From Patescibacteria group bacterium (GTDB lineage: Bacteria > Patescibacteriota > Microgenomatia > UBA1406), in NCBI GenBank assembly GCA_041665145.1, contig JBAYJK010000003.1:5177-69176 (forward strand): a stretch of DNA of 64,000 nucleotides, given 5' to 3'. This document shows, piece by piece, positions 10,808-57,690 of the stretch. Position numbers and translations under genes: made by a program. The notes under the pieces are model-generated. The model searched no databases and was not told the DNA's origin. It saw only the letters and a program-made list of their open reading frames with translations. Within the stretch, counting starts at the first letter, position 1, and each line of letters opens with the position of its first letter.

Positions 10808-11785
10808 ATGGTTTTACGAAACACCAAAGAAATCGTCGTCACCGGGTCCATGTCGTGGGACACCATCATGGACTTCCCTTCCCGATTTGTGGACTACCTT
10901 AACCCGGAAAAACTTCACCAGATAAATGTGTCATTTGTCGTCGATAAGTTGGAAAAGCAGATCGGCGGAACGGCAACCAACATTGCATATGCGGCCGCCC
11001 AAACACTTGCCTATTTCCATAAACAAGAAAAATCTGACGGTATAAGCATTAACGTGCTCGGAGGTTTGGGGAAAGATGCGGCCGCCCACCTACGTTTCTT
11101 TAAAAAGCATAAAATAGATACTTCCCGCATCATGATCGACAGGCGGATGTACAGTGCCGCCGGCTCCGTTATTACGGATACGAAAGACAATCAGATTTGG
11201 GGTTTCTATTACGGCGCATCGGTTGCGGCCAAACGGGTTTCTTTAACGGATTTCGTGCCGAAAGAAACGATTATGATTATTTCGGCAAATCATCCCGATG
11301 CCTTTCTTCATTTTCAGGAAGAGTGTATTAAATTCCATATTCCGTATATGTATGATCCCGGCATGGCGTTGTCATGGATAACGGACAAAGATTTGACAGA
11401 GGGTGTTTTAAAGGCAACGTATTTAATAGGAAACGATTACGAAATCGCAATGGTTTTGAAGCGGATAAAGCAAACGGTTTCGTCACTCATGAATGAAGGA
11501 GTAAATATTATTACTACGTTAGGAGACAAAGGGGTGAGATATGAATCGACAACGGAGAAATATGAAATTCCCGCTGTTTCAAACATAGAAGCGGTTGACC
11601 CGACAGGAGCGGGAGACGCCTGGCGCGGAGGGTTTCTTACCGCTCTGACGAATGGAAAACCGGTTAAAGAGGCGCTGATTGTCGGTAACGCGGTTGCAAG
11701 TTTTGCCGTTGAACATTACGGCTGTGTCAATTATCATATAACGGCGAAGGAATTCGAAAAGAGGTCTCAATGTCTGAAGGTCTAA
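10808..11785 (+). CDS. PfkB-family carbohydrate/nucleoside kinase (possible adenosine kinase)
   Basis: 325 aa. It carries the PfkB signature DPTGAGDAWRGGF near the C-terminus. It lies next to ahcY. The last 7 codons and the stop are encoded by repeat R1. Confidence 0.8.
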   Translation: MVLRNTKEIVVTGSMSWDTIMDFPSRFVDYLNPEKLHQINVSFVVDKLEKQIGGTATNIAYAAAQTLAYFHKQEKSDGISINVLGGLGKDAAAHLRFFKKHKIDTSRIMIDRRMYSAAGSVITDTKDNQIWGFYYGASVAAKRVSLTDFVPKETIMIISANHPDAFLHFQEECIKFHIPYMYDPGMALSWITDKDLTEGVLKATYLIGNDYEIAMVLKRIKQTVSSLMNEGVNIITTLGDKGVRYESTTEKYEIPAVSNIEAVDPTGAGDAWRGGFLTALTNGKPVKEALIVGNAVASFAVEHYGCVNYHITAKEFEKRSQCLKV

Positions 11786-11820
11786 ATGTCTGAGAGTCCC
11801 GAGTCGCGGGTCATGGGTCT
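11764..11820. repeat. R1: GTCTRAWT 8-nt phased array (GTCT orientation only)
   Basis: Units are gtctcaat gtctgaag gtctaaat gtctgaga gtcccgag, followed by GC-rich degenerate units. The pfkB stop TAA 11783..11785 lies inside one unit. Confidence 0.85.
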
Positions 11821-11858
11821 AGTTACGCAATGAACTATTATAAATTGCAAAACACAAG

Positions 11859-13146: not shown

Positions 13147-13248
13147 AAGTTAGAAAGTTGAAAGCAGAAAGTCTGAAAGTCCGAATGTCTGAATGTCTGA
13201 ATGTCAAATTGTCGACATTAAGACTTTTAGACACTAAGACATTCAGAC
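13147..13248. repeat. R2: palindromic GTCTRAWT/AWTYAGAC element centred on GTCGAC (13211..13216)
   Basis: The left arm is gtctgaaa gtccgaat gtctgaat gtctgaat gtcaaatt. The right arm is attaagac ttttagac actaagac attcagac. It lies between ahcY and pyk. Confidence 0.85.
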
Positions 13249-13272
13249 AGGTGCATTAATGTACTTATAAGT

Positions 13273-13284: not shown

Positions 13285-14718
13285 ATGAATAAATTTACAA
13301 AAATAATCGCAACAATCGGTCCGGCGACTGATGATCCGGAAATGATAGAAAAACTTATCGAAGCAGGTGTTAACATTTTCCGTTATAACTTTAAGCACAA
13401 TACCGTAGAATGGCACAACGAGCGTATCCGCAGAGTGAATGCGGTTTCCAAGAAAATGGGAGTGCATGTGGGAAAACTGATCGATCTTCAGGGACCAGAA
13501 ATTCGTATCAAGATGGCGCAGGATTCCATTACCATTAAAGAAGGTGATGAATTGCTGTTCGATGAATCCATGCTCATAAATAAAGGCCAAGGGTTCTCCA
13601 TTTCGCATCCCAGTATTATTGAGCACATGACGGACGGGCAAAAACTCTTAGCGGATGACGGAAGTTTTACGTTTGTCGTGAAGCGGGAGAAAGGCAAATG
13701 CTACTTGGTAAGCCATTCGGAAGGTGTGTTGAAAAATAACAAGTCCCTCAATATGCCCGGATCTAAGTTCCCTCTTCCTGTTCTTATCGAACGAGATTTT
13801 GACGGTCTCAAACTTGCGCAAATGGGAGAAGTAGATTTTGTGGCCTTGTCGTTTGTCAGGACCAAGGAAGATGTCCTTACCCTTCGAAAAGAAATGAAAA
13901 AACTCGGACTGGTGGCAAAAGTGGTTTCAAAAATAGAAACACAGGTTGCTCTCGACAACTTTGATGAAATTTTGTCGGCGTCTGACGCAATCATGGTTGC
14001 CCGCGGAGACTTGGGTGTTGAAATTCCCATCGAACAGGTACCGTACTATCAGAAAATGATGATCAAACGCTGTTTCCAAAAAGGCGTTTCGGTTATAACC
14101 GCAACACAGATGTTGCAAACCATGATCGATAACCCGTTCCCGACTCGCGCAGAAGTATCTGACGTTGCAAACGCGACATATGATTTTACGGATGCAGTTA
14201 TGCTTTCGGGTGAAACTGCAAGCGGCAAGTACCCTCTGCAGGCGGTAAAGATGATGGCGAAAACCGTTGCGTTCAATGAACAAAAACCGTATGCGGATAC
14301 CCGTTCGCTATACCAATTCGAACTTGGTGATCAGGAGCAGAGACTTTCCGACGCGGCATATAACTTGTATATTCAATCATTGAATGTCGAAAATACCATC
14401 GCCGGGTTTGTGATACTTACCGAAACCGGGAGGACGGCTCAACTGCTTTCCCGCTACCGAGCCAAGGCGCCTATTTTCGCCATTTGTCCCACGAAAAAAG
14501 TAGCCGACACGCTGTCCATCAACTTTGCGGTAACGCCGTTCGTCCGTGACGAAGTCTACTCGAAAGACAAGGAAGTCACGAGTGATGACGTGGTGAAAGT
14601 AATCAGCTACCTGCACAAAAACAAGATTCTCAAAAAAGGGCAGAAAGTTGTGGTTCTCCACGGTGACTACTGGGCGGTTGAAGGCGGAACGAGTACCGTA
14701 AAAATAGTCGAGGTCTAA
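13285..14718 (+). CDS. pyk: Pyruvate kinase
   Basis: 477 aa. TKIIATIGPAT start, MVARGDLGVEIP, and a typical barrel plus C-terminal domain. The stop TAA lies inside the first R3 unit. Confidence 0.95.
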   Translation: MNKFTKIIATIGPATDDPEMIEKLIEAGVNIFRYNFKHNTVEWHNERIRRVNAVSKKMGVHVGKLIDLQGPEIRIKMAQDSITIKEGDELLFDESMLINKGQGFSISHPSIIEHMTDGQKLLADDGSFTFVVKREKGKCYLVSHSEGVLKNNKSLNMPGSKFPLPVLIERDFDGLKLAQMGEVDFVALSFVRTKEDVLTLRKEMKKLGLVAKVVSKIETQVALDNFDEILSASDAIMVARGDLGVEIPIEQVPYYQKMMIKRCFQKGVSVITATQMLQTMIDNPFPTRAEVSDVANATYDFTDAVMLSGETASGKYPLQAVKMMAKTVAFNEQKPYADTRSLYQFELGDQEQRLSDAAYNLYIQSLNVENTIAGFVILTETGRTAQLLSRYRAKAPIFAICPTKKVADTLSINFAVTPFVRDEVYSKDKEVTSDDVVKVISYLHKNKILKKGQKVVVLHGDYWAVEGGTSTVKIVEV

Positions 14719-14808
14719 ATGTCGCGAGTCGCGAGTCTGAATGTCTAAGTGTCTGAATGTCCATTAGTCTGTCAGACAATCAGACGCGTGACGCTCAGAC
14801 GCTTAGAC
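14713..14808. repeat. R3: palindromic GTCTRAWT/AWTYAGAC element
   Basis: The left arm is gtctaaat gtcgcgag tcgcgag tctgaat gtctaagt gtctgaat gtccatta gtct. The right arm is gtcagac aatcagac gcgtgac gctcagac gcttagac. Confidence 0.85.
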
Positions 14809-14811
14809 TGA

Positions 14812-14817
14812 TATAAT
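14812..14817 (+). promoter_or_regulatory. -10 box (TATAAT) 6 nt upstream of the lepA ATG
   Basis: TATAAT at 14812..14817 and ATG at 14824, with no SD. Confidence 0.5.
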
Positions 14818-14823
14818 ACCTTC

Positions 14824-16653
14824 ATGAATGTTTCGAGTATTCGTAATTTTGCCATTATCGCCCATGTTGATCACGGTAAGTCTACTTTGGCTGACCGGCT
14901 TTTGGAATTAACGCATGTCGTTACCCCCGGTAAGCACGATGAACAACTCTTGGATAGAAACCCTATATCACGTGAACGAGGAATAACCATCAAACTGGCA
15001 CCGGTGACGATGAAATACAGAGCACAGTCTAAAAGCCCGCCTGCCGGCGAGGCAGGTCTCAATGTCTCAATGTCCGAAAGTCGACATTTAGACACTCAGA
15101 CATTCAGACCTTCAGATGAGTTTACTCTGAATCTTGTTGATACCCCCGGCCATGTCGATTTTTCGTATGAAGTCGAACGAACCCTGGCGTGTGTAGAGGG
15201 CGTCATTTTACTCGTTGACGCGACCCAGGGGATTCAGGCGCAAACGATTGCACATGCGTACAAAGCACTTGAACAGAACCTGACGATTATTCCCGTTGTG
15301 AACAAAATAGATATGGAAAATGCACAGGTGGATAAAACTATTGCGGAGCTTGTCGAATTCCTGGGAGTGAAACCCGAAGAAGTGTACAAAATCTCGGCCA
15401 AAACCGGCATCGGTGTACAAGAACTTCTTGATGCAGTTATCGAACAAGTACCCCCGCCGTCGGACAGCGAATACCGAAAATCGAACATAGAAACGTTGGA
15501 TCACACCAAGTGTCTGATCTTTGATTCGTACTATGATCCGCACCGCGGAGTTATTGCCTTTGCCCGGGTTTTTAACGGTGAAGTGAAAAAGAATACCAAG
15601 CTGTGGTTACAAGCTACCCAAAAATCTTTTGATGTTATGGAAGTCGGTATTTTTACGCCGGATCTTACGCCTACCGAAACATTGGAAGACGGACAAATCG
15701 GGTACATTGTGACAAACCTGAAAGATATCCATGACGTGCAGGTGGGAGATACTCTCAGCACTATTCAGCGTGATACCATGCTTTCCGGATATCGGAAAGT
15801 AAAACCGATGGTCTACGGTTCCGTGTTTCCGACGGACCCCGACGAATATATCGACTTAAAAAAATCTTTGGAAAAGTTGTATTTAAATGACGCTGCGCTG
15901 ACCTTTGAACCCATTTTCAGCAAGGCGATGGGCGGAGGTTTTCGTATCGGTTTTCTGGGACTACTGCACGCCGACGTTACGCGTGAACGACTTGAACGGG
16001 AATTCGAGCAGAGCTTGGTGCTTACGCCTCCGAAAGTGGAATATGAAAATCATGACGGAACATTTTACGAGCCGTTTGTTTCCGTAACCGTTGTCACTCC
16101 CCAACCCTACATGGGCGGTGTGATGCAGCTTTGCGAAGAATCACGGGCCAGCTATAAACATATGGATAATAAGAACCAGATTATCTTGGTTTATGAAATG
16201 CCTTTGGTGGAACTTATCGGACAGTTCTTCGACCGCTTGAAAAGTATTACGTCGGGGTACGCTTCTCTTGACTGGGAGTTTTTGGAATACCGACCGGTAC
16301 AGGCAGATTACTTGGAAATTCTTTTAAACCTTGAACCGGTGGAAGAGTTTTCCGAGATTGTGGTGCATGAGCGTGCATTCGAACGTGCCCGCGAACTTAC
16401 GAAGAAAATACATGAAATTATTCCCCGACAACAGTACGAAGTGAAAATTCAGGCGCGGTATAAAGGAAAGATTATCGCATCAGAGCGTGTTGCTCCATTT
16501 AGAAAAGATGTTACGGCCAAGCTCTACGGAGGAGACCGCACACGGAAAGACAAGTTGTTGAACAAACAGAAAAAAGGTAAAAAACTCATGAAGAATATCG
16601 GCAAGGTGGAGATTCCAAAAGAAGCATTCATCAAGCTCTTCAAGACGTCCTAA
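14824..16653 (+). CDS. lepA: Elongation factor 4 (LepA) carrying a ~27-aa repeat-derived insertion in the G domain
   Basis: 609 aa. NFAIIAHVDHGKSTL, DTPGHVDF, NKID and the conserved LepA C-terminal domain are present. The segment QSKSPPAGEAGLNVSMSESRHLDTQTFRPSDE has no counterpart in canonical LepA. Confidence 0.95.
   Translation: MNVSSIRNFAIIAHVDHGKSTLADRLLELTHVVTPGKHDEQLLDRNPISRERGITIKLAPVTMKYRAQSKSPPAGEAGLNVSMSESRHLDTQTFRPSDEFTLNLVDTPGHVDFSYEVERTLACVEGVILLVDATQGIQAQTIAHAYKALEQNLTIIPVVNKIDMENAQVDKTIAELVEFLGVKPEEVYKISAKTGIGVQELLDAVIEQVPPPSDSEYRKSNIETLDHTKCLIFDSYYDPHRGVIAFARVFNGEVKKNTKLWLQATQKSFDVMEVGIFTPDLTPTETLEDGQIGYIVTNLKDIHDVQVGDTLSTIQRDTMLSGYRKVKPMVYGSVFPTDPDEYIDLKKSLEKLYLNDAALTFEPIFSKAMGGGFRIGFLGLLHADVTRERLEREFEQSLVLTPPKVEYENHDGTFYEPFVSVTVVTPQPYMGGVMQLCEESRASYKHMDNKNQIILVYEMPLVELIGQFFDRLKSITSGYASLDWEFLEYRPVQADYLEILLNLEPVEEFSEIVVHERAFERARELTKKIHEIIPRQQYEVKIQARYKGKIIASERVAPFRKDVTAKLYGGDRTRKDKLLNKQKKGKKLMKNIGKVEIPKEAFIKLFKTS
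15056..15117. repeat. R4: palindromic GTCT/AGAC element inserted in-frame inside lepA
   Basis: The units are gtctcaat gtctcaat gtccgaaa GTCGAC atttagac actcagac attcagac cttcagat. This is the same architecture and GTCGAC centre as intergenic R2. Confidence 0.85.
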
Positions 16654-22622: not shown

Positions 22623-23801
22623 ATGACACAAAAACTTTTTGACGAAAACGCATATCAGGCAGAATTTGAAGCGACTGTCGTTAGTCAAACGCAAACAGAG
22701 CTTGGCTGGGAAGTTGTTTTGGACAAAACGTGTTTCTTCCCCGAAGGCGGTGGACAAGATTCTGATGCAGGAACTTTGAATGGCCAAAAGGTCAAGAAAC
22801 TGGTTAAGACAGATGACGGAGACATAATCCATGTTATGCAAGAAAAAATTGAACAGTCAACCATTATCGGGCAGATAGACTGGAAGAAACGCTTTCGTAA
22901 CATGCAGCAACATTCCGGTCAACACATCCTCTCTGGGGTCCTGCTCAACACATATAAGTTGCAAACGGAATCGGCCAGTTTTACAGAAAAAGAAGGCCAC
23001 ATAACTTTGGAATGGTCAATTCCCGATAACGACTTGGAAAAGGCACTTATCGCGGCAAATGAAATAATATTTGCAAACAAACCCATAATCACGAAATTTA
23101 TATCATTGGATGAAATAGAAAAGTATAATCTTGCGAAGCTTCCTAAAGATAAATTTACGAAAACGGGGAAAATTCGTATCTGGCAGATAGAAGGGTTTTA
23201 TACCATTCCTTGTGGCGGTACGCACTGCAAGTCGACGGGTGAAATCGGAAATATCTTCGTGAAGAGCAATAAAATTCATGGAAATAGGACAGATCTTAAC
23301 TTTACTACGGGTTTCGTAACGCTGGATTATCTGACGGCAACGAAAAAAATTACTTCCGAACTGGCGAAAATGCTGGAAGTTGGTACGGACGGACTTGTTG
23401 ACGCGACGAAGAAAGTTATGGATGACCGGCATGCGTTGAATTTGGCACTGCGTGAAAACCAGGAACAGGTTGCGGCACAAAAAGCAGTGCAGATTTTGCA
23501 AACAGCGACAAAGGGAAAAGTTACGTTTACTGCATTTGTTTACTCGGAAGCAGATAAGGGGACGGTAAAAACAACATTGTATCAGCTTGCAGAAACACCA
23601 AACTCCGTGCATATTGCCCATGGCGCGAATGTTCCCCTAACCGTTGTTAGCTCGAAAGATGTATCTCTAGACACGCTTTCAATACTTACTGAATTAAAAA
23701 CAAAATTCAACGGCAAAGGCGGAGGAAGCAAAACCTATTGGCAAGCGATGATTACGGACCACGAACAATTTGTGAAAGAATTAATGGAAAAATTATCGTA
23801 A
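22623..23801 (+). CDS. alaX: AlaX-L-type alanyl-tRNA editing protein
   Basis: It has HSGQHILS and CGGTHC zinc motifs of the tRNA_SAD editing domain and a C-terminal GKGGGS (DHHA1-like). The start is set at the second ATG (22623), 7 nt after TATAAT 22610..22615. The track start 22614 lies inside that box. Confidence 0.8.
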   Translation: MTQKLFDENAYQAEFEATVVSQTQTELGWEVVLDKTCFFPEGGGQDSDAGTLNGQKVKKLVKTDDGDIIHVMQEKIEQSTIIGQIDWKKRFRNMQQHSGQHILSGVLLNTYKLQTESASFTEKEGHITLEWSIPDNDLEKALIAANEIIFANKPIITKFISLDEIEKYNLAKLPKDKFTKTGKIRIWQIEGFYTIPCGGTHCKSTGEIGNIFVKSNKIHGNRTDLNFTTGFVTLDYLTATKKITSELAKMLEVGTDGLVDATKKVMDDRHALNLALRENQEQVAAQKAVQILQTATKGKVTFTAFVYSEADKGTVKTTLYQLAETPNSVHIAHGANVPLTVVSSKDVSLDTLSILTELKTKFNGKGGGSKTYWQAMITDHEQFVKELMEKLS

Positions 23802-24394
23802 TGAAACGCGTATTTATAATTCATCGCTGGAGCGGAAGCCCGGAAAAAGATTGGCTCCCCTGGCTTGTCCGTTCGATTCAGACCTTGAGACCTTCAGACA
23901 TTCAGACGCATGACTCCTATGAAGTCTTTGTCCCTTCCATGCCCGACCCCGACGTTCCCACTATCGAGAACTGGACCACACATTTAAAACATCTGGTGGG
24001 AAAACTGTTGCCAACGGACGTTTTTATTGGCCACAGTATTGGTTGCCAGACAATTTTGCGGTACTTGGAAAAACTCCCCGCGGGTGAAAAAGCGGACAAA
24101 GTTATTCTGGTTGCACCATTTTTAACCTTAAAAGGTCTCGAGACCGAGGAAGAATTTCGTATTGCTAAACCATGGTTACGTACGCTTATCGACCTGCGCC
24201 GCATACCCGACAAAGCAAATTCCTATACCCTACTCTTTTCGGATAATGATCCGTTTGTTCCCCTGGACGAAAACGTGCAGTTGTTTAAAAAATGGATCAA
24301 TCCGGAAATTCACACACTTCACGACAAAGGTCATTTCACCCAAGATGACGGGATTGTCGAACTTCCTGAGCTCCTGAATTTTCTAAGAATTTGA
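23801..24394 (+). CDS. YdeN/RBBP9-like alpha/beta serine hydrolase with a repeat-derived insertion
   Basis: MKRVFIIHRWSGSPEKDWLPWL start, GHSIG nucleophile elbow, C-terminal DKGHF. The start ATG overlaps the alaX stop (TAATG). The track's 23738 start is an upstream in-frame extension. Confidence 0.7.
   Translation: MKRVFIIHRWSGSPEKDWLPWLVRSIQTLRPSDIQTHDSYEVFVPSMPDPDVPTIENWTTHLKHLVGKLLPTDVFIGHSIGCQTILRYLEKLPAGEKADKVILVAPFLTLKGLETEEEFRIAKPWLRTLIDLRRIPDKANSYTLLFSDNDPFVPLDENVQLFKKWINPEIHTLHDKGHFTQDDGIVELPELLNFLRI
23876..23914. repeat. R5: AGAC-orientation half element in-frame inside the hydrolase gene
   Basis: The units attcagac cttgagac cttcagac attcagac gcatgac encode IQTLRPSDIQTHD. Confidence 0.75.
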
Positions 24395-24430: not shown

Positions 24431-24497
24431 GACCCAGTTTCCGAATTGTCACCGTATGGTGTGCGTTCGAAGCAATCGCTTCGATAGGAACTGGGTC
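24431..24497. terminator. Nested stem-loop between convergent genes (possible bidirectional terminator or small structured RNA)
   Basis: The outer stem is gacccagtttcc/ggaactgggtc (11 bp, one bulged T). The inner perfect 7-bp hairpin is tcgaagc-aatc-gcttcga (24467..24484). Confidence 0.35.
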
Positions 24498-24500
24498 GAA

Positions 24501-25127
24501 CTATTTAAACACCCAGATATCTTTTTCTTTTGATTTGATAATTTTTCTGTAGATATTCCAATCTTCGGTCATCTTGTCAAAGTATCTGCGAATTGTGCCA
24601 GCTATCATGTCTGCCATTTGTACGAGCACATCTTTAGATGAGTCCCGAAACCTGATGTTCTTCATAACTGTATTGTTGGTGGAGTTCAAATGTTGGCGAA
24701 GATAGGTACTCAGTTGTGTCCGAAACGCCCGCTCACCTCTTCCATCAATGCGAATTTTAGCGTTTCTGATCGTATTATTGTTGTGTTGTAGTATCTGTCG
24801 TAGTGAGAAATTGTAGAAACTTTCTTTGCTTGTTTGTAAATAGGTACTGTAAATCTGTGGTTTGTTAATAACAATAGCTCGAATTTCATATTTGATGTCG
24901 CTAATTGCGTGAAGAAATGCTTCCCGATATGATCTACTACATCCATTAAATTTGAACTCAAATCTGTCTGATTTCTGCAATTTTTGTTTTAAGCGTTTAA
25001 TTCTGATTGCGGCTTCTTCAGCATCTAAATCATTCTTAAAGACTACCAAAGCTATAACAAAATATGGGCTTGATCCCCGTGCAATCTTAAATCCAGGATC
25101 GCCAGATTCATCTATGAAAATAATCAT
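24501..25127 (-). CDS. DUF3800-like protein
   Basis: The N-terminus MIIFIDESGDPGF is typical of DUF3800. The start is set at ATG 25127, 6 nt downstream of TACAAT (reverse complement of 25134..25139). The track's 25178 start would overlap the divergent MazG promoter. Confidence 0.65.
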   Translation of the reverse strand: MIIFIDESGDPGFKIARGSSPYFVIALVVFKNDLDAEEAAIRIKRLKQKLQKSDRFEFKFNGCSRSYREAFLHAISDIKYEIRAIVINKPQIYSTYLQTSKESFYNFSLRQILQHNNNTIRNAKIRIDGRGERAFRTQLSTYLRQHLNSTNNTVMKNIRFRDSSKDVLVQMADMIAGTIRRYFDKMTEDWNIYRKIIKSKEKDIWVFK

Positions 25128-25198
25128 GTGCTGATTGTAACGTATATAAAATAAAGGATAGAAGTGTATAAACACCAAAAGAGGTATAATTTGTTGTC

Positions 25199-30560: not shown

Positions 30561-30953
30561 ATGAAATACTTTTTACCCCTCTTAACCCTTCTCTTTTTCG
30601 TAGTTGCCTTTGCGTTTCCGGTGACGACGCTTGCCTGGTTGCAGACGTATGAGGTTGGGCCGACTCGCGTATATGGATTTTGGCCGGGACTGATGCATGG
30701 GTTTATCGCACCCTTTGCTCTTATCGGACAATTGTTTGACAACACCATTGTGCTGTATTCATCAGTTAATAACGGCTTCTGGTACAACCTTGGATTCTTA
30801 CTCGGGATTTCCTGTATTATCGGCGGTGGTTCAAAAGGCACCTGTATAAAACAGAAAAAAGACGACGATGAAAAAAAGTTTGTGGCATTTCTGAGGACCA
30901 TAGGAATTATTGCCTTTTTATCTGCAATTGTGAATAAATGGGGGAAGAAATAA
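30561..30953 (+). CDS. Small membrane protein, unknown function
   Basis: 130 aa with 3-4 hydrophobic helices. TATACT lies 9 nt upstream of the ATG. It was chosen over the antisense 30545..30901 ORF because of the helix pattern and the promoter. Confidence 0.45.
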   Translation: MKYFLPLLTLLFFVVAFAFPVTTLAWLQTYEVGPTRVYGFWPGLMHGFIAPFALIGQLFDNTIVLYSSVNNGFWYNLGFLLGISCIIGGGSKGTCIKQKKDDDEKKFVAFLRTIGIIAFLSAIVNKWGKK

Positions 30954-30954
30954 C

Positions 30955-31054
30955 GTCGCGAGGCAAAATGTCTGATTGTCTAAAGCTATGCGTCTAATTG
31001 TCTGAGTAATATACGTCTGAGAGTCTCAATGTCTGATTGTCTGAATGTCTCAAT
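30955..31054. repeat. R6: GTCT-orientation array (left arm of a split palindrome around 31060..31422)
   Basis: The units are gtcgcgag...gtctgatt gtctaaag...gtctaatt gtctgagt...gtctgaga gtctcaat gtctgatt gtctgaat gtctcaat. Confidence 0.85.
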
Positions 31055-31059
31055 ACCCC

Positions 31060-31422
31060 TCAATGCGCGAGGTACTTTATGAACCTTGAAAGCTTTACTG
31101 AAATACTGATTAACCGTTTTCTCAACTGATCATATGCTTCCGCATTTATATATGAAAGCTTATGAGCGACCAAAAGCTGGGTTCGTACTTCACCCGCGGA
31201 GCCTTTGGCAATATAAAGAAATCTTTTAAAATCCATATCTGATTCTCTTTCAAATCCTTCGGATATATTGGACGGAATTGAAACTGCTGCCCTCCGTATT
31301 TGATCGGTTAATCCATAATCTTTGTGAAAGGAGGTGTAATTGGTTATTGAGTAAACTTTGCCTACAAGTTCAATAGCCTCTTTCCAGATACTAAGATCCT
31401 CAAAGTAACGAATAGTCGGCAT
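31060..31422 (-). CDS. Four-helix-bundle protein (23S rRNA intervening-sequence protein family)
   Basis: 120 aa. FEDLSIWKEAIEL...DQIRRAAVSIPSNISEGFER...FLYIAKGSAGEVRTQL is the family consensus pattern. Confidence 0.85.
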   Translation of the reverse strand: MPTIRYFEDLSIWKEAIELVGKVYSITNYTSFHKDYGLTDQIRRAAVSIPSNISEGFERESDMDFKRFLYIAKGSAGEVRTQLLVAHKLSYINAEAYDQLRKRLISISVKLSRFIKYLAH

Positions 31423-31473
31423 ATGTTTATCTAAGCAGAATCGTCACAATATACAACGGCTTATAAGCATCAC

Positions 31474-31569
31474 ATATCGACATTTAGACACTTAGACAAT
31501 CAGACAATTAGACTCTTTGACACTCAGACACTTGGACAATCAGACAATCAGACTTTGTGACATTTAGAC
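31474..31569. repeat. R7: twelve perfectly phased AWTYAGAC 8-mers (right arm of the split palindrome)
   Basis: The units are atatcgac atttagac acttagac aatcagac aattagac tctttgac actcagac acttggac aatcagac aatcagac tttgtgac atttagac. Confidence 0.9.
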
Positions 31570-31598
31570 TCTTGAGTAATTTTTGTTACAATGTTCTC

Positions 31599-32429
31599 GT
31601 GCGCAACTTATTTTTTTCTGACCAAGTAAAAAAACTTGCTCCCCTCCTTATTATCCAAGTGGCGTTAGTCGCCGTAGTTATCATGACCGGATTGAATGAG
31701 AAACGGCTCAGTTCGTCTTCCAAGGCATCCGGTGTCGACTGCCCCCCGTACTCCGAGTCCCAGGGCACGTGGTGCGATTACCGGCATACGACGGACGAGA
31801 ACAACCGGGATGCTCCTGTTCTCAATCCGAACTATTTGGATACGTACAACGACTGTTGGGATAAATGCGTGAAGCTCGACACTACTCAGTGCAATGGCGT
31901 GTGTCACTACGGAAGCGCTACCGTGTGTGTGCAAGAAGGTGTTTGGGCAGCAAATGCAACCCAGTGTAGCTATATCTGTAACTGGGCATGTTGTGGAGGA
32001 AAGCCCAAGATTTCCGCCTGTACCGGCGGCCCGGTTGAACCGATAGCAACAAGAGCGCCGCAACAGCCGACAACGCCTCCAGCTCAACCTACCCAGCCTC
32101 CCTATGTGCCGCCGACACAGCCGCCGTATGTTCCTCCCGTTCAGCCGACTACCCCACCGAGAATTACTATAGTCCAGCCTTCCACGCCTCCTCCCACCAG
32201 CATTCCTCAGGGAAACATCGACTTCAAACAGCTTGACCAGTATGCAAATCAGCCCACACAAAGTGTAGCTCCCCAGCAGAATACCGGTGACTTTTTAAGC
32301 GGAACGTCTGATTTTGTAAACGGAGTCGGGTCGCGCATTGCATTTGAGGCGAACCTGAACTCCAAACGCCTGTGGTACCTGCTGCAGGGAATCTGGTATA
32401 CCGTCAGTAAACCCTTCCTCAAACCGTAA
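31599..32429 (+). CDS. Membrane-anchored Cys-rich / Pro-rich secreted protein
   Basis: It has a TM anchor LAPLLIIQVALVAVVIMTGL, a Cys-rich ~100-aa domain, then PTQPPYVPPTQPPYVPPVQP repeats. The start is set at GTG 31599, 6 nt after TACAAT 31587..31592. The track start 31557 lies inside R7. Confidence 0.5.
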   Translation: MRNLFFSDQVKKLAPLLIIQVALVAVVIMTGLNEKRLSSSSKASGVDCPPYSESQGTWCDYRHTTDENNRDAPVLNPNYLDTYNDCWDKCVKLDTTQCNGVCHYGSATVCVQEGVWAANATQCSYICNWACCGGKPKISACTGGPVEPIATRAPQQPTTPPAQPTQPPYVPPTQPPYVPPVQPTTPPRITIVQPSTPPPTSIPQGNIDFKQLDQYANQPTQSVAPQQNTGDFLSGTSDFVNGVGSRIAFEANLNSKRLWYLLQGIWYTVSKPFLKP

Positions 32430-32634: not shown

Positions 32635-33984
32635 ATGAAAAGTCAAGCATACTTTTGGCTTGCCCGCTACTTTCGGTTCTTTGCAAAACTGGTACTGCTG
32701 CGTTGGCATCCGAAAGTAATCGTGATTACCGGATCCGCCGGAAAAACTACTGCTCTGCAATTAACCTACCAGCTCGTTGTCCAGAAGTACCCTGTTAAGA
32801 AAAGTTATAAGGCAAATAGCGCGATAGGAGTGCCTTTGGACGTACTGGGCTTGCACTTCACCAACTACTCCCTCAAAGAGTGGTTTATTAATATTGTCAA
32901 GACTCCCGTTCGTGCGTTGAAACGTTTAGTTTACCCGTATGTGGAACGCTATTACCTGGTGGAACTGGATGTCGACCGTCCGAATGAAATGGAGTTCTTT
33001 TCTCAGTTTATCACCCCCCATATTATCTTCTGGGTCAGCAGTTATGCGACACATACTCAGAACTTTGAACCCCTGGTGAAACAGGGATTGTACCCGTCTG
33101 TTCAGGAAGCGGTTACCGGTGAATATGCCAAGATTCAGAAAGCTGCCAAAAAGAAAACACTGCTTATCACCAACGGCGACAGCAAACTGATGACGAAAGC
33201 GACCAACAAATACCCGTACAAAAAAATTTCCATCCGCGAATCGAAGGGTACGTACCAGTTTACCGACTGGACCATCTTCCGCAAGCGCACGGAATTTACC
33301 GTTAAACTTGGCAAACGTACGGAAGTAGTAACGGTCCCACACATGGTCCCCAAGAATTTCGGGTACACGTTGGTCGAACTGTTTTTGGTTGCCGAAGCGC
33401 TGGGAATTGACGAACGGATGATTAAGGTTGCCTTGGAGAACTACTCCCCCTTACCCGGAAGAAGTTCCGTATTCAAAGGCGTGAATGATTCAATGCTTAT
33501 CGACTCTACTTATAATTCCAGTTACTATGCGTCGAGCGGGTTGCTGACCATGCTGCAGAATTTTCCGGGCAGACGGAAGATTGCCGTATTGGGTGACATG
33601 CGTGAATTGGGAAAAGAAACCAAATCGGAGCATCGCCGCTTGGCCCAACGGGTTGTCGAGTGCGCGGTAGACCAGGTGGTGTTGGTCGGTCCTCAGACAA
33701 AAGCATACGTCCTTCCCTACCTTCTCGATCACGGATACTCGGACTCAACCGTTCATCACTTTGACAACTCGTACCAAGCCGGACTGTTTATCAAAGAACG
33801 TCTGTCAAAATCGGGAGACGTTATTTTGCTGAAAGCCTCTCAGAATACGTTAATGTTTGAAATAATCGTTGAGATGTTGTTGGCGGACAAGTCGGATGTT
33901 GAAAAACTCTGTCGTCGCGAGTTGATCTGGGAAAAGAAGAGACAGCTTATAAAGAAGAGCTTTTATGATAGTTTGAATAGTTAA
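32635..33984 (+). CDS. Mur ligase family protein (MurF-like)
   Basis: 449 aa. It has the P-loop VITGSAGKTT and a Mur-ligase middle and C-terminal layout (LGDMRELG). Confidence 0.7.
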   Translation: MKSQAYFWLARYFRFFAKLVLLRWHPKVIVITGSAGKTTALQLTYQLVVQKYPVKKSYKANSAIGVPLDVLGLHFTNYSLKEWFINIVKTPVRALKRLVYPYVERYYLVELDVDRPNEMEFFSQFITPHIIFWVSSYATHTQNFEPLVKQGLYPSVQEAVTGEYAKIQKAAKKKTLLITNGDSKLMTKATNKYPYKKISIRESKGTYQFTDWTIFRKRTEFTVKLGKRTEVVTVPHMVPKNFGYTLVELFLVAEALGIDERMIKVALENYSPLPGRSSVFKGVNDSMLIDSTYNSSYYASSGLLTMLQNFPGRRKIAVLGDMRELGKETKSEHRRLAQRVVECAVDQVVLVGPQTKAYVLPYLLDHGYSDSTVHHFDNSYQAGLFIKERLSKSGDVILLKASQNTLMFEIIVEMLLADKSDVEKLCRRELIWEKKRQLIKKSFYDSLNS

Positions 33985-33986
33985 AT

Positions 33987-34100
33987 GTCATGGATCACGA
34001 GTCACACGTCTAATTGTCTCAATGTCTGAATGTCTGAGCGTCACGAGTCGAGAGTCACGCGTCTCAATGTCAGAATGTCTGAAAGTCTAAATGTCTAATT
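33987..34100. repeat. R8: long GTCT-orientation array between convergent genes
   Basis: The units are gtcatgga tcacgag tcacac gtctaatt gtctcaat gtctgaat gtctgagc gtcacgag tcgagag tcacgc gtctcaat gtcagaat gtctgaaa gtctaaat gtctaatt. The last unit supplies the stop of 34095..34505. Confidence 0.85.
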
Positions 34101-37896: not shown

Positions 37897-37987
37897 GTCT
37901 AAATGTCTAAATGTCTAAGTGTCTAAGTGTCTAAGTGTCTCGGTATTTCTCAGACCTTAAGACATTCGGACAATTAGACCTTCTGAC
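37897..37987. repeat. R9: palindromic GTCTRAWT/AWTYAGAC element between ppa and gyrA
   Basis: The left arm is gtctaaat x2, gtctaagt x3, gtctcggt. The right arm is (ctc)agac cttaagac attcggac aattagac cttctgac. Confidence 0.9.
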
Positions 37988-37990
37988 GTT

Positions 37991-38506
37991 TTAGGCCTTC
38001 AGTCCCTTTTTAACTTCTGCTATAGCAACTTCTTTGCTCATGAACTTTTCTGTCTTAACCCATTTATTGGGTTCGAGTTCTTTGTAGTGGTCAAAGAAAT
38101 GCTTAATCCGGTCGGTAACTGCTGCGGGCAAATCTTCGATGTTCTCATATACGCCGTACAGCGGATCAACTTTTTTTACGGGAACGGCAATAAGTTTGGT
38201 GTCCACACCTTCTTCGTCCTTCATTTCAAGCATTCCGATAAGTTTGCACTTTATCAATGCTCCGGCCATGACGGGTTCGGATGACAAAACCATAATGTCC
38301 TGTGGGTCGCCGTCTTCACCTTTGGTGTTCGGAACAAATCCGTAGTTAAACGGATACTTCATGGCAGTGTATAAAAACCTGTCCGCCATCATAAATCCGG
38401 TCTCTTCATCAATCTCGTATTTAACCATGCTGTCTTTTTCTATTTCAATAAAAGCCAAGAGCTCTGGGAGCTTTGCCGGGTCAAGTTTAATTTTCTTAAA
38501 ATCCAT
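37991..38506 (-). CDS. ppa: Inorganic pyrophosphatase (family I)
   Basis: 171 aa. It has YPFNYGFVPNT and DGDPQDIMVL motifs. Confidence 0.93.
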   Translation of the reverse strand: MDFKKIKLDPAKLPELLAFIEIEKDSMVKYEIDEETGFMMADRFLYTAMKYPFNYGFVPNTKGEDGDPQDIMVLSSEPVMAGALIKCKLIGMLEMKDEEGVDTKLIAVPVKKVDPLYGVYENIEDLPAAVTDRIKHFFDHYKELEPNKWVKTEKFMSKEVAIAEVKKGLKA

Positions 38507-43165: not shown

Positions 43166-43178
43166 TGGAAAAGAAGTC

Positions 43179-43415
43179 GCCGCCTTAGCTTAAGCGGTAC
43201 CTGCCCGCAATGCTTCGCATAGCGATGCAGGCGGGGAGCAATCGATTTGAGCCGTTTTGCCGAAGTAGCTCAGGGGTAGAGCAATCGCTTTGTAAGCGAT
43301 GGGTCGTGGGTCCAAATCCCACCTTCGGCTCAAATTAATATGCGATGGGTCGTCGGTTCCCTGCTCGCCATCGCTTCGCTCAGGCGTTAGCGGGCGAGAA
43401 ATCCGACAGGCGGCT
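43179..43415 (+). pseudogene. Split or interrupted tRNA-like gene whose halves bracket tRNA-Thr (status uncertain: pseudogene, att scar or intron-containing tRNA)
   Basis: The 5' half is GCCGCCT-TA-GCTT-AAGCGGTA-[36-nt hairpin 43200..43235]-GAGC-A-ATCGA. The 3' half is GCGAT-GGGTC-GTCGG-TTC-[39-nt hairpin 43360..43398]-AAAT-CCGAC-AGGCGGC-T. The acceptor and T stems are mutually complementary, and the whole is paralogous to the nested tRNA-Thr. Confidence 0.35.
43259..43330 (+). tRNA. tRNA-Thr (anticodon UGU)
   Basis: Hand-folded cloverleaf: GCCGAAG-TA-GCTC-AGGGGTA-GAGC-A-ATCGC-TTTGTAA-GCGAT-GGGTC-GTGGG-TCCAAAT-CCCAC-CTTCGGC-T. The T-loop has C at position 55. CCA is not encoded. Confidence 0.8.
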
Positions 43416-43576
43416 CACTATTCTCGTCGGTTCCCCGATTTGTGTAGCTCATCAATTGTTGGTTGATCAAATTCCATACAGTGCTTCATGCAAAATGGGT
43501 TTCTAAATTCTTAGATTTTTATAATGATACTCTAGGATGTGTTCTGCTATAATCAAAGTATTATGTGGAGTTGTAA

Positions 43577-54354: not shown

Positions 54355-54438
54355 GTTCACCTGTCACATGTCGCGCGTCACGGGTCACGAGTCTAAGAGT
54401 CTGAATGTCTGAATGTCTGAATGTCTAAGTGTCTAGGG
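54355..54438. repeat. R10: GTCT-orientation array between the NUDIX gene and rarA
   Basis: The units are gtcacat gtcgcgc gtcacgg gtcacga gtctaaga gtctgaat x3 gtctaagt gtctaggg. The last unit supplies the NUDIX stop codon (reverse complement of CTA 54433..54435). Confidence 0.9.
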
Positions 54439-54915: not shown

Positions 54916-54919
54916 TATG

Positions 54920-54993
54920 TCGGAGTGGGCGGACTTGAACCGCCGACCTCACGCTCCCAAAGCGTGCGTTCTAGCCATCTGAACTACACTCCG
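54920..54993 (-). tRNA. tRNA-Pro (anticodon UGG)
   Basis: Hand-folded: CGGAGTG-TA-GTTC-AGATGGCTA-GAAC-G-CACGC-TTTGGGA-GCGTG-AGGTC-GGCGG-TTCAAGT-CCGCC-CACTCCG-A. It is 74 nt. Confidence 0.9.
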
Positions 54994-55019: not shown

Positions 55020-55763
55020 CTAAGGAAGTGCGTGGAAATTTATTTTTTTGTTTAAAACAGCCTCGCGGTATGGATAAAGGCTTATGTGGTACTTGCGCTC
55101 AAAATAAGTAAAGGTATCCAATATATGTGACTGAAGAGCTGGAAAAAAAGGAAGCGCAACATTTGCCAGGTAATGCGCCGCATTATCGACTTGGGCACTG
55201 ATTTCGTCATGTTCGAGTCTTTGCCGACTCCCGGGATATTGATTTCCCATAGCTGCGTCTTCGATATCGCCAACAATAGTAGACAACGTACCATTAGGTG
55301 TCGCAATCAAAAAATAGACAGAGAATACAAATCTGAAATTGTTCTGTATTGTCAAATCCACTAATTTTCTAAACTCATCAACAAAAACATCGGGGTTTTG
55401 TACCGGTTTATTTCGAGTACTTGTTGTCCACAGGTGTGCAATAGAATCGATGTCAACATTTTCTTCCGTTGAGCCATCGGGCTGTCGTGCAAATTTTAGA
55501 AAATCGGTAGCGGATACAACAAGGTTTTTCCCGCCGTTACTGACGTCATTCATCCTAATTTCGTGTTTATCAAAGTCAGGTTCGTATTTGTCAAAGGTTG
55601 GAATATGTGCAGCTAATAGCGCATTATAAACTGATAAAACAGAACGTACTGCACCGCTAGACCAATGAGAAAGCCGTTTTATGCACTCACCGTCTTTATT
55701 CCGAAATATTGTTCCATCCGCACCTCTGGGCATCACGAGTTCGACTGAGGTTTCGTCAAGCAT
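55020..55763 (-). CDS. Hypothetical protein encoded between tRNA-Leu and tRNA-Pro
   Basis: The start is set at ATG 55763 (MLDETSVELV...). The track's GTG start at 55805 would overlap tRNA-Leu. No family was recognised. Confidence 0.5.
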   Translation of the reverse strand: MLDETSVELVMPRGADGTIFRNKDGECIKRLSHWSSGAVRSVLSVYNALLAAHIPTFDKYEPDFDKHEIRMNDVSNGGKNLVVSATDFLKFARQPDGSTEENVDIDSIAHLWTTSTRNKPVQNPDVFVDEFRKLVDLTIQNNFRFVFSVYFLIATPNGTLSTIVGDIEDAAMGNQYPGSRQRLEHDEISAQVDNAAHYLANVALPFFPALQSHILDTFTYFERKYHISLYPYREAVLNKKINFHALP

Positions 55764-55764
55764 G

Positions 55765-55847
55765 TGCCGGGGGCGGGACTCGGACCCGCACGACCGTGAG
55801 GTCACAGGATTTTAAGTCCTGCGTGTATACCATTTCACCACCCCGGC
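55765..55847 (-). tRNA. tRNA-Leu (anticodon UAA), long variable arm
   Basis: GCCGGGG-TG-GTG-AAATGGTATA-CAC-G-CAGGA-CTTAAAA-TCCTG-TGACCTCACGGTCGT-GCGGG-TCCGAGT-CCCGC-CCCCGGC-A. The T-loop has C55. Confidence 0.85.
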
Positions 55848-55854
55848 AAATTTA

Positions 55855-55939
55855 AGTCGTAAGTTGTAATAAAGCCTAAAGTTACAAGTTGTAATTCCTT
55901 GCAACTTAGTTAGTTACGGCTTTATTACAACTTACGACT
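55855..55939 (-). terminator. 22-bp perfect inverted repeat (41-nt loop) downstream of ruvB
   Basis: agtcgtaagttgtaataaagcc (55855..55876) pairs with ggctttattacaacttacgact (55918..55939). The loop contains a second small hairpin. There is no clear U-tract. Confidence 0.4.
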
Positions 55940-55979
55940 CGCACCTTACGACTTGTCGTATAATTATAACATTCGGAAA

Positions 55980-57534: not shown

Positions 57535-57561
57535 GTGCTAAGTATACATAAATCTAGGGTA

Positions 57562-57690
57562 AATTACACAAATGACAAATTCACAAATATACAAATCAAA
57601 TTCAAAATTAAAATGTTCAAAACGTTTTAATTTTTGTGTATTTATTATTTGAATTTGATTTGATGTTTGTTATTTGAATTTTGTGTAATT
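57562..57690. repeat. Long AT-rich imperfect palindrome (~60-nt arms) between ruvC and ruvA
   Basis: The arms begin and end with aattacacaaa/tttgtgtaatt. The perfect 15-bp core is caaatcaaattcaaa (57592..57606) / tttgaatttgatttg (57648..57662). The centre is aaaacgtttt. Confidence 0.75.

Follow-up and report, generated by a model that had tools for sequence, protein, structure and literature searches.

The stretch of DNA analysed here, 64,000 nucleotides of a Patescibacteria group bacterium (contig JBAYJK010000003.1, positions 5,177 to 69,176 of the forward strand) and referred to as the window, contains at positions 54391-54438 six phased 8-nt units of the form GTCTRANN, in the order GTCTAAGA, three copies of GTCTGAAT, GTCTAAGT and GTCTAGGG, for which Tandem Repeats Finder (TRF) called a period of 8. 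This focal array overlaps the stop codon of a NUDIX gene on the minus strand and continues to the left into 7-nt units that keep the GTC phase. The 7-nt and 8-nt stretches together, located between the NUDIX stop and the start of mgsA/rarA (54310), form the element called E10 below, one of an interspersed set of such arrays whose nature is the subject of this text. The NUDIX protein retains its ancestral C-terminus (..IEQP, with ..IExP as the family end), and an 81% identical NUDIX gene in a relative (L053) is separated from the next gene by 8 nt. A gene for tRNA-Pro(TGG), at 54919-54993, precedes the NUDIX start codon by 3 nt and is on the same strand.

Arrays were found by chaining GTC or GAC at 8-nt spacing, which gave 15 arrays of at least three units, and the repeat-bearing arrays were grouped into ten elements, E1 to E10. 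The survey covered about 84 kb of a genome of about 0.9 Mb, including, besides the window, L136, a sequence that gives 10 kb to the left of the window and holds one further array and two further palindromic copies, N1 and N2. The consensus unit GTCTRAWT was counted 43 times in the window, compared with 10.6±3.7 times in shuffled sequences, and the logo obtained from 80 phased units reads G, T, C, T, then G (34), A (30), C (13) or T (3), then A, then A (47), G (20) or T (11), and finally T. Each arm strings together 7- or 8-nt units in GTC phase; a copy that has both a GTC arm and a GAC arm is a complete one and forms a palindrome, and the others are single arms. The elements, together with the gene enclosed by two of them, are as follows, with z giving the folding of the sequence relative to its shuffles.

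11764-11822, plus strand: E1, four 8-nt units, three 7-nt units and then GTCTAG, at the pfkB end.
13147-13253, no strand assigned: E2, palindromic foldback at the ahcY-pyk junction, with a GTCT arm, a GTCGAC centre and a GAC arm; hairpin of -38.2 kcal/mol, z -5.8.
14713-14813, no strand assigned: E3, palindromic foldback at the pyk-lepA junction; z -3.9.
15030-15116, plus strand: E4, foldback and GC hairpin, in frame in lepA; z -4.9.
23874-23912, plus strand: E5, GAC-type array in frame in the serine-hydrolase gene 23801-24394, with the peptide ..SIQTLRPSDIQTH..
30955-31054, plus strand: E6, GTCT-type array, left arm of the composite around the gene in the next line.
31060-31422, minus strand: gene for a four-helix-bundle protein, the 23S rRNA intervening-sequence protein (IVP), PF05635 (E 1.3e-38), enclosed by E6 and E7.
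31479-31574, plus strand: E7, 12 GAC-type units, the longest array, right arm of the same composite.
33987-34100, plus strand: E8, mosaic solo array of 7-nt, 8-nt, 7-nt and 8-nt units.
37897-37992, no strand assigned: E9, palindromic foldback between the ppa stop (37991-37993) and the gyrA start (37877); z -4.9.
54362-54390, plus strand: 7-nt GTC-phased units of E10 (GTCACAT, GTCGCGC, GTCACGG, GTCACGA), continuous with the 8-nt array to the right.
54391-54438, plus strand: the focal array, the 8-nt part of E10, a solo array and not a palindrome.

Only one copy carries an open reading frame (ORF), and it encodes the IVP protein. The arms E6 and E7 on its two sides show 83% complementarity over 40 nt, with a distinctive GATT unit subtype common to both, and in the minimum-free-energy fold of a 636-nt region containing this element (the element itself being 30955-31574) the two arrays pair as a long stem around the ORF (z -5.7). 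E6 begins 1 nt after the stop of the ORF at 30561-30953, and 5 nt separate its other end from the IVP stop. E7 is located between the IVP start (31422, minus strand) and the start of the ORF 31593-32429 (plus strand), which is favoured by codon statistics and by its start region, TTGTTACAATGTTCTCGTG, conserved in the syntenic relative L146; since it lies between divergent gene starts, E7 is not at the 3' end of any gene. L146, which also belongs to the candidate phyla radiation (CPR), contains an orthologous IVP gene (63% identity) in the opposite orientation; the 7-nt units on its two sides, (ATCACGN)n and (NCGTGAT)n, form inverted arrays whose right boundary is that seen in the window (gene and arrays together at 1221-1770), and these units resemble the GTCACGN units mixed into the window arrays. 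Short-unit complementary arms were also found around a Bacteroidota-like IVP gene in a suf operon (L147, gene and arms together at 2373-3025). Thus, the combination that marks intervening-sequence (IVS) elements, namely an S23p/PF05635 ORF with complementary termini forming a long stem, is present in the window, in L146 and in L147, while the usual location in 23S or 16S rRNA is not, as Rfam sees no rRNA in the window and the element lies between protein-coding genes. E6-IVP-E7 has the architecture of an intervening-sequence element outside rRNA. The short palindromes would then be ORF-less derivatives of such an element, analogous to miniature inverted-repeat transposable elements, or MITEs, and the solo arrays would be half-elements.

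When a genome collection was scanned for (GTCTGAAT)3, 52 loci were found, none from this organism, and most of them were unrelated microsatellite-like arrays in other phyla; a scan of viral contigs gave 8 matches, all unrelated. When the (GTCTGAAT)3 loci were searched by tblastn for the IVP protein, the single match was non-adjacent, and a link between IVP and arrays was not shown in those genomes. About 20 loci with (GTCTGAAT)3-6 came from a Bacteroidales metagenome-assembled genome (MAG), SKYG01, where the arrays occur in the fixed context CAT-NTGTTTAAAATT-(array)-GTCGAAAAG, 12 nt upstream of a start codon on the opposite strand (L003, L004, L007, L009, L011, L013, L014, L019, L029, L035, L047, L048, L050 and L051 are among them). 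Other tandem arrays of 7-9 nt were seen nearby at many Bacteroidota loci.

Comparison with relatives indicated that the sites occupied by elements are otherwise narrow and empty. In the syntenic relative L055, the pyk and lepA genes overlap as ATGA, the Mur ligase gene overlaps its neighbour, the spacer between ppa and gyrA is 14 nt, and the arrays are absent; in a relative with a 69% identical pfkB, the gene is followed by a spacer of 15 nt. The spacers of the relatives at element sites range from -4 to 15 nt, and therefore an inserted element must touch the stop codon. Within the window, the median spacer is 111.5 nt at the 8 gene junctions that hold an element and 12.5 nt at the 52 that do not (60 junctions in total). 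For instance, pyk and lepA are 105 nt apart here, and lepA has a new start with four extra N-terminal residues (MNVSS-IRNF at window 14824-14838, compared with M-IRNF at L055 1300-1312), so that the insertion appears to have uncoupled two genes that were translationally coupled. A metagenome scan with LepA returned only distant relatives (62% identity or less), which were used as a negative control. No array was found in 82 LepA-neighbourhood loci of relatives, and accordingly arrays with at least four units number 14 in the 64 kb of the window and 0 in the 906 kb of those loci.

Three arrays are translated in frame within genes, namely in lepA (15030-15116), in the serine-hydrolase gene (23874-23912) and in the GT2 glycosyltransferase gene of L136 (19054-19093). 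In lepA, E4 adds about 31 amino acids (..SKSPPAGEAGLNVSMSESRHLDTQTFRPS..) to a loop of the G domain, which Pfam sees as about 20 extra residues in that domain and which are absent from the closest LepA, that of L055 (87% identical there). The serine hydrolase has gained 9 amino acids compared with its homologue in L054. The inserted peptides are nearly identical (..DTQTFRPSD.. in lepA, ..SIQTLRPSDIQT.. in the serine hydrolase and ..HSDIQTLRPSDI.. in the glycosyltransferase), and the cyclic peptide IQT[FL]RPSD, read as ..QTFRPSD.. or ..IQTLRPSD.., is common to all three. The array is of the GAC type on the coding strand in each case. The GTC-type left arm in lepA is also translated, by means of stop-free unit variants, and the only unit there that would yield an in-frame TGA reads GTCTCAAT instead.

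At gene ends, the units supply stop codons. The preliminary description had reported that four genes terminate inside a repeat unit, and the list of ORFs with their translations bears this out.

11783-11785, plus strand: TAA stop of pfkB, in the unit GTCTAAAT, the third unit of E1.
14716-14718, plus strand: TAA stop of pyk, in the unit GTCTAAAT, the first unit of E3.
34095-34097, minus strand (reverse complement): TAG stop of the thioredoxin-like gene, in the unit GTCTAATT, the last of E8.
54433-54435, minus strand: TAG stop of the NUDIX gene, the antisense of CTA in the degenerate end unit GTCTAGGG, which matches the consensus at 5 of 8 positions.

That description also assigned the stop to the triplet at unit positions 4-6, which needs correction for the two genes on the minus strand, where it is an antisense TAG at positions 3-5 (CTA) that only GTCTA units possess. 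The protein ends are altered little. The pfkB product ends in ..EKRSQCLKV, compared with ..EKRLKSL in homologues, with the last 7 codons and the stop encoded by the array; the pyk stop is at exactly the ancestral position and the protein is as long as that of L055; the thioredoxin-like protein exceeds its homologues by about 5 amino acids; and ppa keeps its native protein end. E8 is located between convergent genes, the thioredoxin-like gene, whose stop is in the last unit, and a Mur ligase gene, whose stop (33982-33984) is 2 nt away. The same site bears an array in L146, in which the Mur ligase gene, unlike its orthologue in the window, includes 5 codons of a GTCT array and takes its stop from the second unit (..DSLNAKSLKV*; L146 4167-4212), so that the position of the array edge with respect to the gene end is not fixed. 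With this gene of the relative, stops supplied by units are used by at least five genes, and the tail LKV* is common to the L146 Mur ligase and the window pfkB.

The elements hug the 3' ends of genes. The distance from the element edge to the stop codon has a median of 1 nt over 11 gene 3' ends, four of which overlap the element, whereas the distance to the start codon has a median of 19 nt (10-56 nt) over 9 gene 5' ends (Mann-Whitney P=0.0008), and 10-56 nt is enough room for a promoter or start region. The preliminary description had asked whether stops coincide with units more often than by chance. In the window, they do so relative to uniform placement (4 inside elements, compared with 0.82 expected, P about 0.01), but this excess is explained by insertion into narrow junctions, because the elements occupy junctions in which the normal spacer is about 12 nt. 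Two foldbacks built from unit types other than the GTCT family were also seen in the window. The one at the ruvC-ruvA junction (57545-57688, z -4.7) has other 8-nt units of an ACAAAT type (ACAAATNN / NNATTTGT) and begins 0 nt after the ruvC stop; hugging of the 3' end is therefore not tied to the GTCT unit.

The claim that the 8-nt period places a stop in every frame was examined for the focal array and for the family. In E10, stop triplets on the plus strand start at 54394, 54402, 54410, 54418, 54426 and 54434, so that each of the three frames is hit twice, and on the minus strand TAG at 54435, 54427 and 54395 also hits all three frames; the six phased units thus do contain stops in all frames, and on both strands. 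In the family as a whole, a sense stop is present in 49 of the 80 units (61%), leaving 39% without one, an antisense TAG is present in 21 of 80, all of the GTCTA type, and (ATTCAGAC)n, the antisense of the commonest unit, GTCTGAAT, has no stop in any of the three frames. The density of stop triplets inside elements is 0.069-0.074 per position, compared with about 0.058 estimated from a composition of about 43% G+C. All three frames are closed on 15 of 20 element-strands, compared with 11.7±2.1 when random sequences are given the lengths of the elements and the composition of intergenic DNA (P about 0.08), and closure is thus near the random expectation, not clearly above chance, for an AT-rich spacer of 60-110 nt. 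For such a spacer, the "8 mod 3" argument, although arithmetically sound, thus adds little. A stop independent of frame stands insofar as the units deliver stops when an array enters a gene end; it does not stand as a general property, with more than a third of the units stopless, one orientation open and closure about random. What was said of the palindromes was found in every copy: the six known ones (E2, E3, E4 and E9 in the window, N1 and N2 in L136) all have the GTC arm followed by the GAC arm, and ribosomes arriving from either side meet the stop-bearing arm first.

The elements differ in their predicted RNA structure. E2, E3, E4 and E9 form hairpins with z from -3.9 to -5.8 as imperfect palindromes of 35-45 bp, whereas for the single arms E1, E5, E6, E7, E8 and E10 most or all shuffles fold better than the element itself (z +0.75 to +3.05), in the case of the focal array 200 of 200 (z +3.05). 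A terminator scan over 10-25 kb found no hairpin followed by a T-run on any element and no more terminators than in shuffles; the focal array lacks a stem, and the palindromic copies have long A/U-rich stems without a T-run, so that neither resembles an intrinsic terminator. The proposal that the elements end transcripts is therefore not supported for the focal array and the five other solo arrays, and the stop-plus-terminator interpretation as a whole is partly supported. Promoter-like boxes abut some of the downstream starts. The right arm of E3 and its flank (14788-14823) contain GTGACG-18-TATAAT, TG-extended, ending 7 nt before the lepA ATG, and TACAATG (31585-31595), conserved in L146, overlaps the start of ORF 31593. 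These boxes are suggestive of leaderless mRNAs or mRNAs with very short leaders. By analogy with the stems of repetitive extragenic palindromes and of IVS elements, the hairpin copies may alter mRNA stability or processing, for example as substrates of RNase III.

The explanation that we favour, and regard as fairly probable, is that the arrays are a lineage-specific interspersed foldback repeat family, resembling MITEs, Rickettsia palindromic elements (RPEs) and IVS elements, in a CPR genome, in which the stop-rich sense arm is passive and makes insertion at gene 3' ends harmless. Copies of GTCT(G/A/C)A(A/G)T would have arisen by insertion or expansion after the lineage split from its nearest sampled relatives, and in a genome whose junctions are about 0-15 nt wide a copy would survive in three situations only. 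First, it could abut or slightly overlap the 3' end of the upstream gene, where the sense arm would stop translation within three units or fewer and keep the protein within 6 codons of its native length. Second, the downstream gene could be left with 10-56 nt in which to accommodate its promoter and start. Third, a copy could be translated in frame as part of a protein loop that tolerates it, if it is antisense, and so free of stops, or consists of a variant without stops. With survival limited in this way in narrow junctions, the stop in every frame would be a passive feature and not a dedicated termination device.

Several known systems share parts of this description. RPEs are known for in-frame insertions and for MITE-like behaviour (PMC10969869). 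As in these, short non-coding palindromic repeats are spread across a reduced genome, mostly between genes, and a notable fraction lies in frame in unrelated housekeeping genes and adds a conserved peptide (PMC10969869), here in lepA, the serine hydrolase and GT2, in each case without disrupting the ORF. The terminal inverted repeats of MITEs have their counterpart in the folded GTC and GAC arms of E2, E3, E4 and E9 and in the same layout of N1 and N2, while six other copies are single arms. The arms here differ in being phased 7-/8-nt tandem units instead of unique sequence, many copies consist of one arm only, neither a target-site duplication nor a parent transposase was seen in the DNA examined, and the host phylum is Patescibacteria; this phylum and the structure of the units make homology to RPE families 1-10 unlikely. 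IVS elements contain an S23p ORF, terminal inverted repeats and a stem cut by RNase III, and are regarded as selfish, sporadic and horizontally transferred (PMC4990558). Like these, E6-IVP-E7 and its counterpart in L146 have an ORF of about 120 amino acids for a four-helix bundle bordered by complementary termini forming a long stem. They differ in lying between protein-coding genes and not in 23S rRNA helix 9, 25 or 45, in having arms that are tandem-unit arrays, and in having ORF-less derivatives scattered in the genome. Repetitive extragenic palindromic (REP) sequences, with bacterial interspersed mosaic elements (BIMEs) and enterobacterial repetitive intergenic consensus (ERIC) sequences, likewise are palindromes located outside genes, just downstream of stop codons within operons, and Liang, Rudd and Deutscher reportedly found in 2015 that both the termination of translation and the decay of mRNA are influenced by REPs lying within about 15 nt of a stop. 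The imperfect extragenic palindromes of 20-40 nt with a GT[AG]G head that define REPs, and REPINs composed of them, were not found here, as the units begin with GTCT or GTCR and the arms are tandem arrays; no RAYT gene was seen among the proteins scanned or annotated, and the internal 8-nt periodicity and the in-frame intragenic copies (3 of 13 here) are not REP features. The heptamer arrays of cyanobacteria known as short tandemly repeated repetitive (STRR) sequences are comparable multicopy arrays of short tandem units. In Geobacter metallireducens, paired inverted sites of tandem octanucleotides have been interpreted as regulator sites (PMC2700814); they are similar as multicopy sites of 3-5 tandem 7-/8-nt units, often in opposite-strand pairs, between and within genes, but their unit sequences are different (GTTGCTYN, TCTCCGTS), and no link to stop codons or IVP has been reported. 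A scan with Rfam gathering thresholds gave no family match on any element, and literature searches by the unit sequence, octanucleotide repeats, CPR palindromic repeats and PF05635 did not find this repeat family described. An alternative genetic code was set aside as protein lengths agree with translation table 11, and arrays of the CRISPR or TIGR kind were set aside as the units are too short and lack spacers.

A number of observations weigh against an interspersed repeat with a passive stop. No clear target-site duplication was found when filled sites were compared with the empty sites of L055 (lepA, pyk/lepA and ppa/gyrA). Neither a transposase, among about 30 proteins of the window and flank scanned by Pfam and in the annotation of the left 20 kb and the 10-kb extension, nor a RAYT gene, among the scanned or annotated proteins, was seen, which in both cases covers about half of the genes in the window. 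L136 is 100% identical to L137, from an independent sample (SRR6484324), over 16,186 nt including two arrays, and this one overlapping assembly thus gives no direct sign of ongoing mobility or change in copy number. We infer the derivation of the short foldbacks from the IVP copy by shared unit type and architecture and not by a sequence tree. Furthermore, the stop is in phase with the array at 4 of 8 sense-facing gene ends, compared with 1 of 8 expected (P=0.011), and these in-phase stops, together with the sense-arm-first order of all six palindromes, would also fit selection for the delivery of stops. The elements may also have a role in 3'-end formation or RNA processing, with a secondary role in uncoupling or processing the mRNAs of operons.

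These last points lead to the alternative closest to the preliminary description, in which the elements are evolved punctuation cassettes that stop ribosomes in any frame and end or insulate the transcript, with a promoter following for the next gene. The five unit-supplied stops (pfkB, pyk, the thioredoxin-like gene, NUDIX and the L146 Mur ligase), the stop-bearing arm on both sides of six palindromes out of six, the excess of in-phase stops, and the TATAAT-like boxes between element and downstream start, for example at lepA and ORF 31593, are all as it would have them, and canonical terminators are no commoner in the region than in shuffles, so that another mechanism could serve. However, sense-arm-first order, in-phase stops and TATAAT-like boxes are also expected if there was a founder effect, if copies were inserted no further downstream than the old stop and if long read-through was selected against. 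Such cassettes are also difficult to reconcile with the stopless units and the open antisense of GTCTGAAT, with three arrays that are translated inside genes, with E7 between divergent starts, with closure of the frames at about the random level, and with solo arrays, including the focal one, that have neither structure nor a T-run; moreover, the next in-frame backup stop is 9-15 codons away, 52 of 60 junctions have no element, and the relatives do without arrays. We therefore consider this alternative rather unlikely.

A broader proposal is the following: PF05635 (S23p/IVP, Avd-like) cassettes within phased 7-/8-nt arrays could be the autonomous or parental form of an undescribed class of foldback elements beyond rRNA, with ORF-less derivatives at gene junctions in CPR and apparently in Bacteroidota, whose stems cut by RNase III and stop-rich arm would make up a punctuation system. 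We put this forward as a speculation of low probability. If it were true, the stems would cut polycistronic mRNAs at junctions and the sense arm would uncouple translation, a form of punctuation for genomes almost without intergenic space.

It is improbable, in our judgement, that the GTC-phased arrays are DNA or RNA binding platforms for a lineage-specific multimeric factor, such as the pentameric IVP protein, a nucleoid protein or Rho, with the stops incidental. The invariant GTC among 4-5 variable unit positions, the mixing of 7- and 8-nt units in phase, the unusually unstructured solo arrays (z up to +3), and the physical linkage of an IVP gene to arrays in two CPR genomes would suit such a factor, as would the predicted global regulator sites of G. 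metallireducens, which are paired inverted sites of four tandem octanucleotides (PMC2700814). Nevertheless, arrays are not oriented consistently with respect to the genes beside them, sites repeated every 8 nt would not all face the same side of the DNA helix, relatives with the same genes lack the arrays, and IVP proteins have no demonstrated sequence-specific binding (PMC4990558); Rho rut sites in particular were set aside as the array orientation is inconsistent with respect to transcription. Similarly doubtful is the growth of microsatellites in place at each junction by slippage, perhaps as contingency loci in which one 8-nt unit shifts the frame, since tandem runs of identical units (GTCTGAAT x3, GTCTAAGT x3), the different array edge at the Mur ligase end in the window and L146, and the array inside a glycosyltransferase, a gene class that is often phase-variable, are outweighed by one unit consensus at 13 or more separate loci, by palindromic arm pairs and mixed 7-/8-nt units that local slippage alone does not make, by mostly imperfect units that damp slippage, and by the identity of two independent samples across two arrays.

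Other features of the window were noted in passing. Between tRNA-Leu and ruvB (55825-55965) there is a hairpin with a perfect stem of 23 bp and an inner stem of 10 bp (-53 kcal/mol, z -7.9), with CTTACGACT repeats nearby. The tRNA-Leu(TAA) gene (55764-55847) overlaps the 5' end of the mechanically called ORF 55020-55805, which has no Pfam match and whose real start is probably further downstream. An Rfam DUF3800-IX RNA motif (24431-24501, plus strand, 63 bits) adjoins a DUF3800 gene on the opposite strand (24501-25178, minus), and a spacer of 411 nt around tRNA-Thr (43166-43576) contains GC-rich hairpins and an apparent partial duplicate of the 3' half of the tRNA (GCGATGGGTCGTCGGTTCC..).

If the interspersed foldback family is the correct explanation, a selfish repeat has spread in a genome with almost no intergenic DNA, and it would be tolerated at gene ends and in protein loops through its having stops in one orientation and being stop-free in the other. 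It would also link the genes for four-helix-bundle "IVS proteins" with short interspersed 7-/8-nt arrays, two subjects usually treated apart, and would give a testable origin for such arrays, which are seen in Bacteroidota MAGs too. For the annotation of CPR genomes, C-terminal ..LKV* tails and internal ..QTFRPSD.. peptides would be recognised as repeat-encoded, and the operon structure of these organisms may be rewired by insertions, as in the case of pyk and lepA, which overlap in a relative and are spaced apart here.

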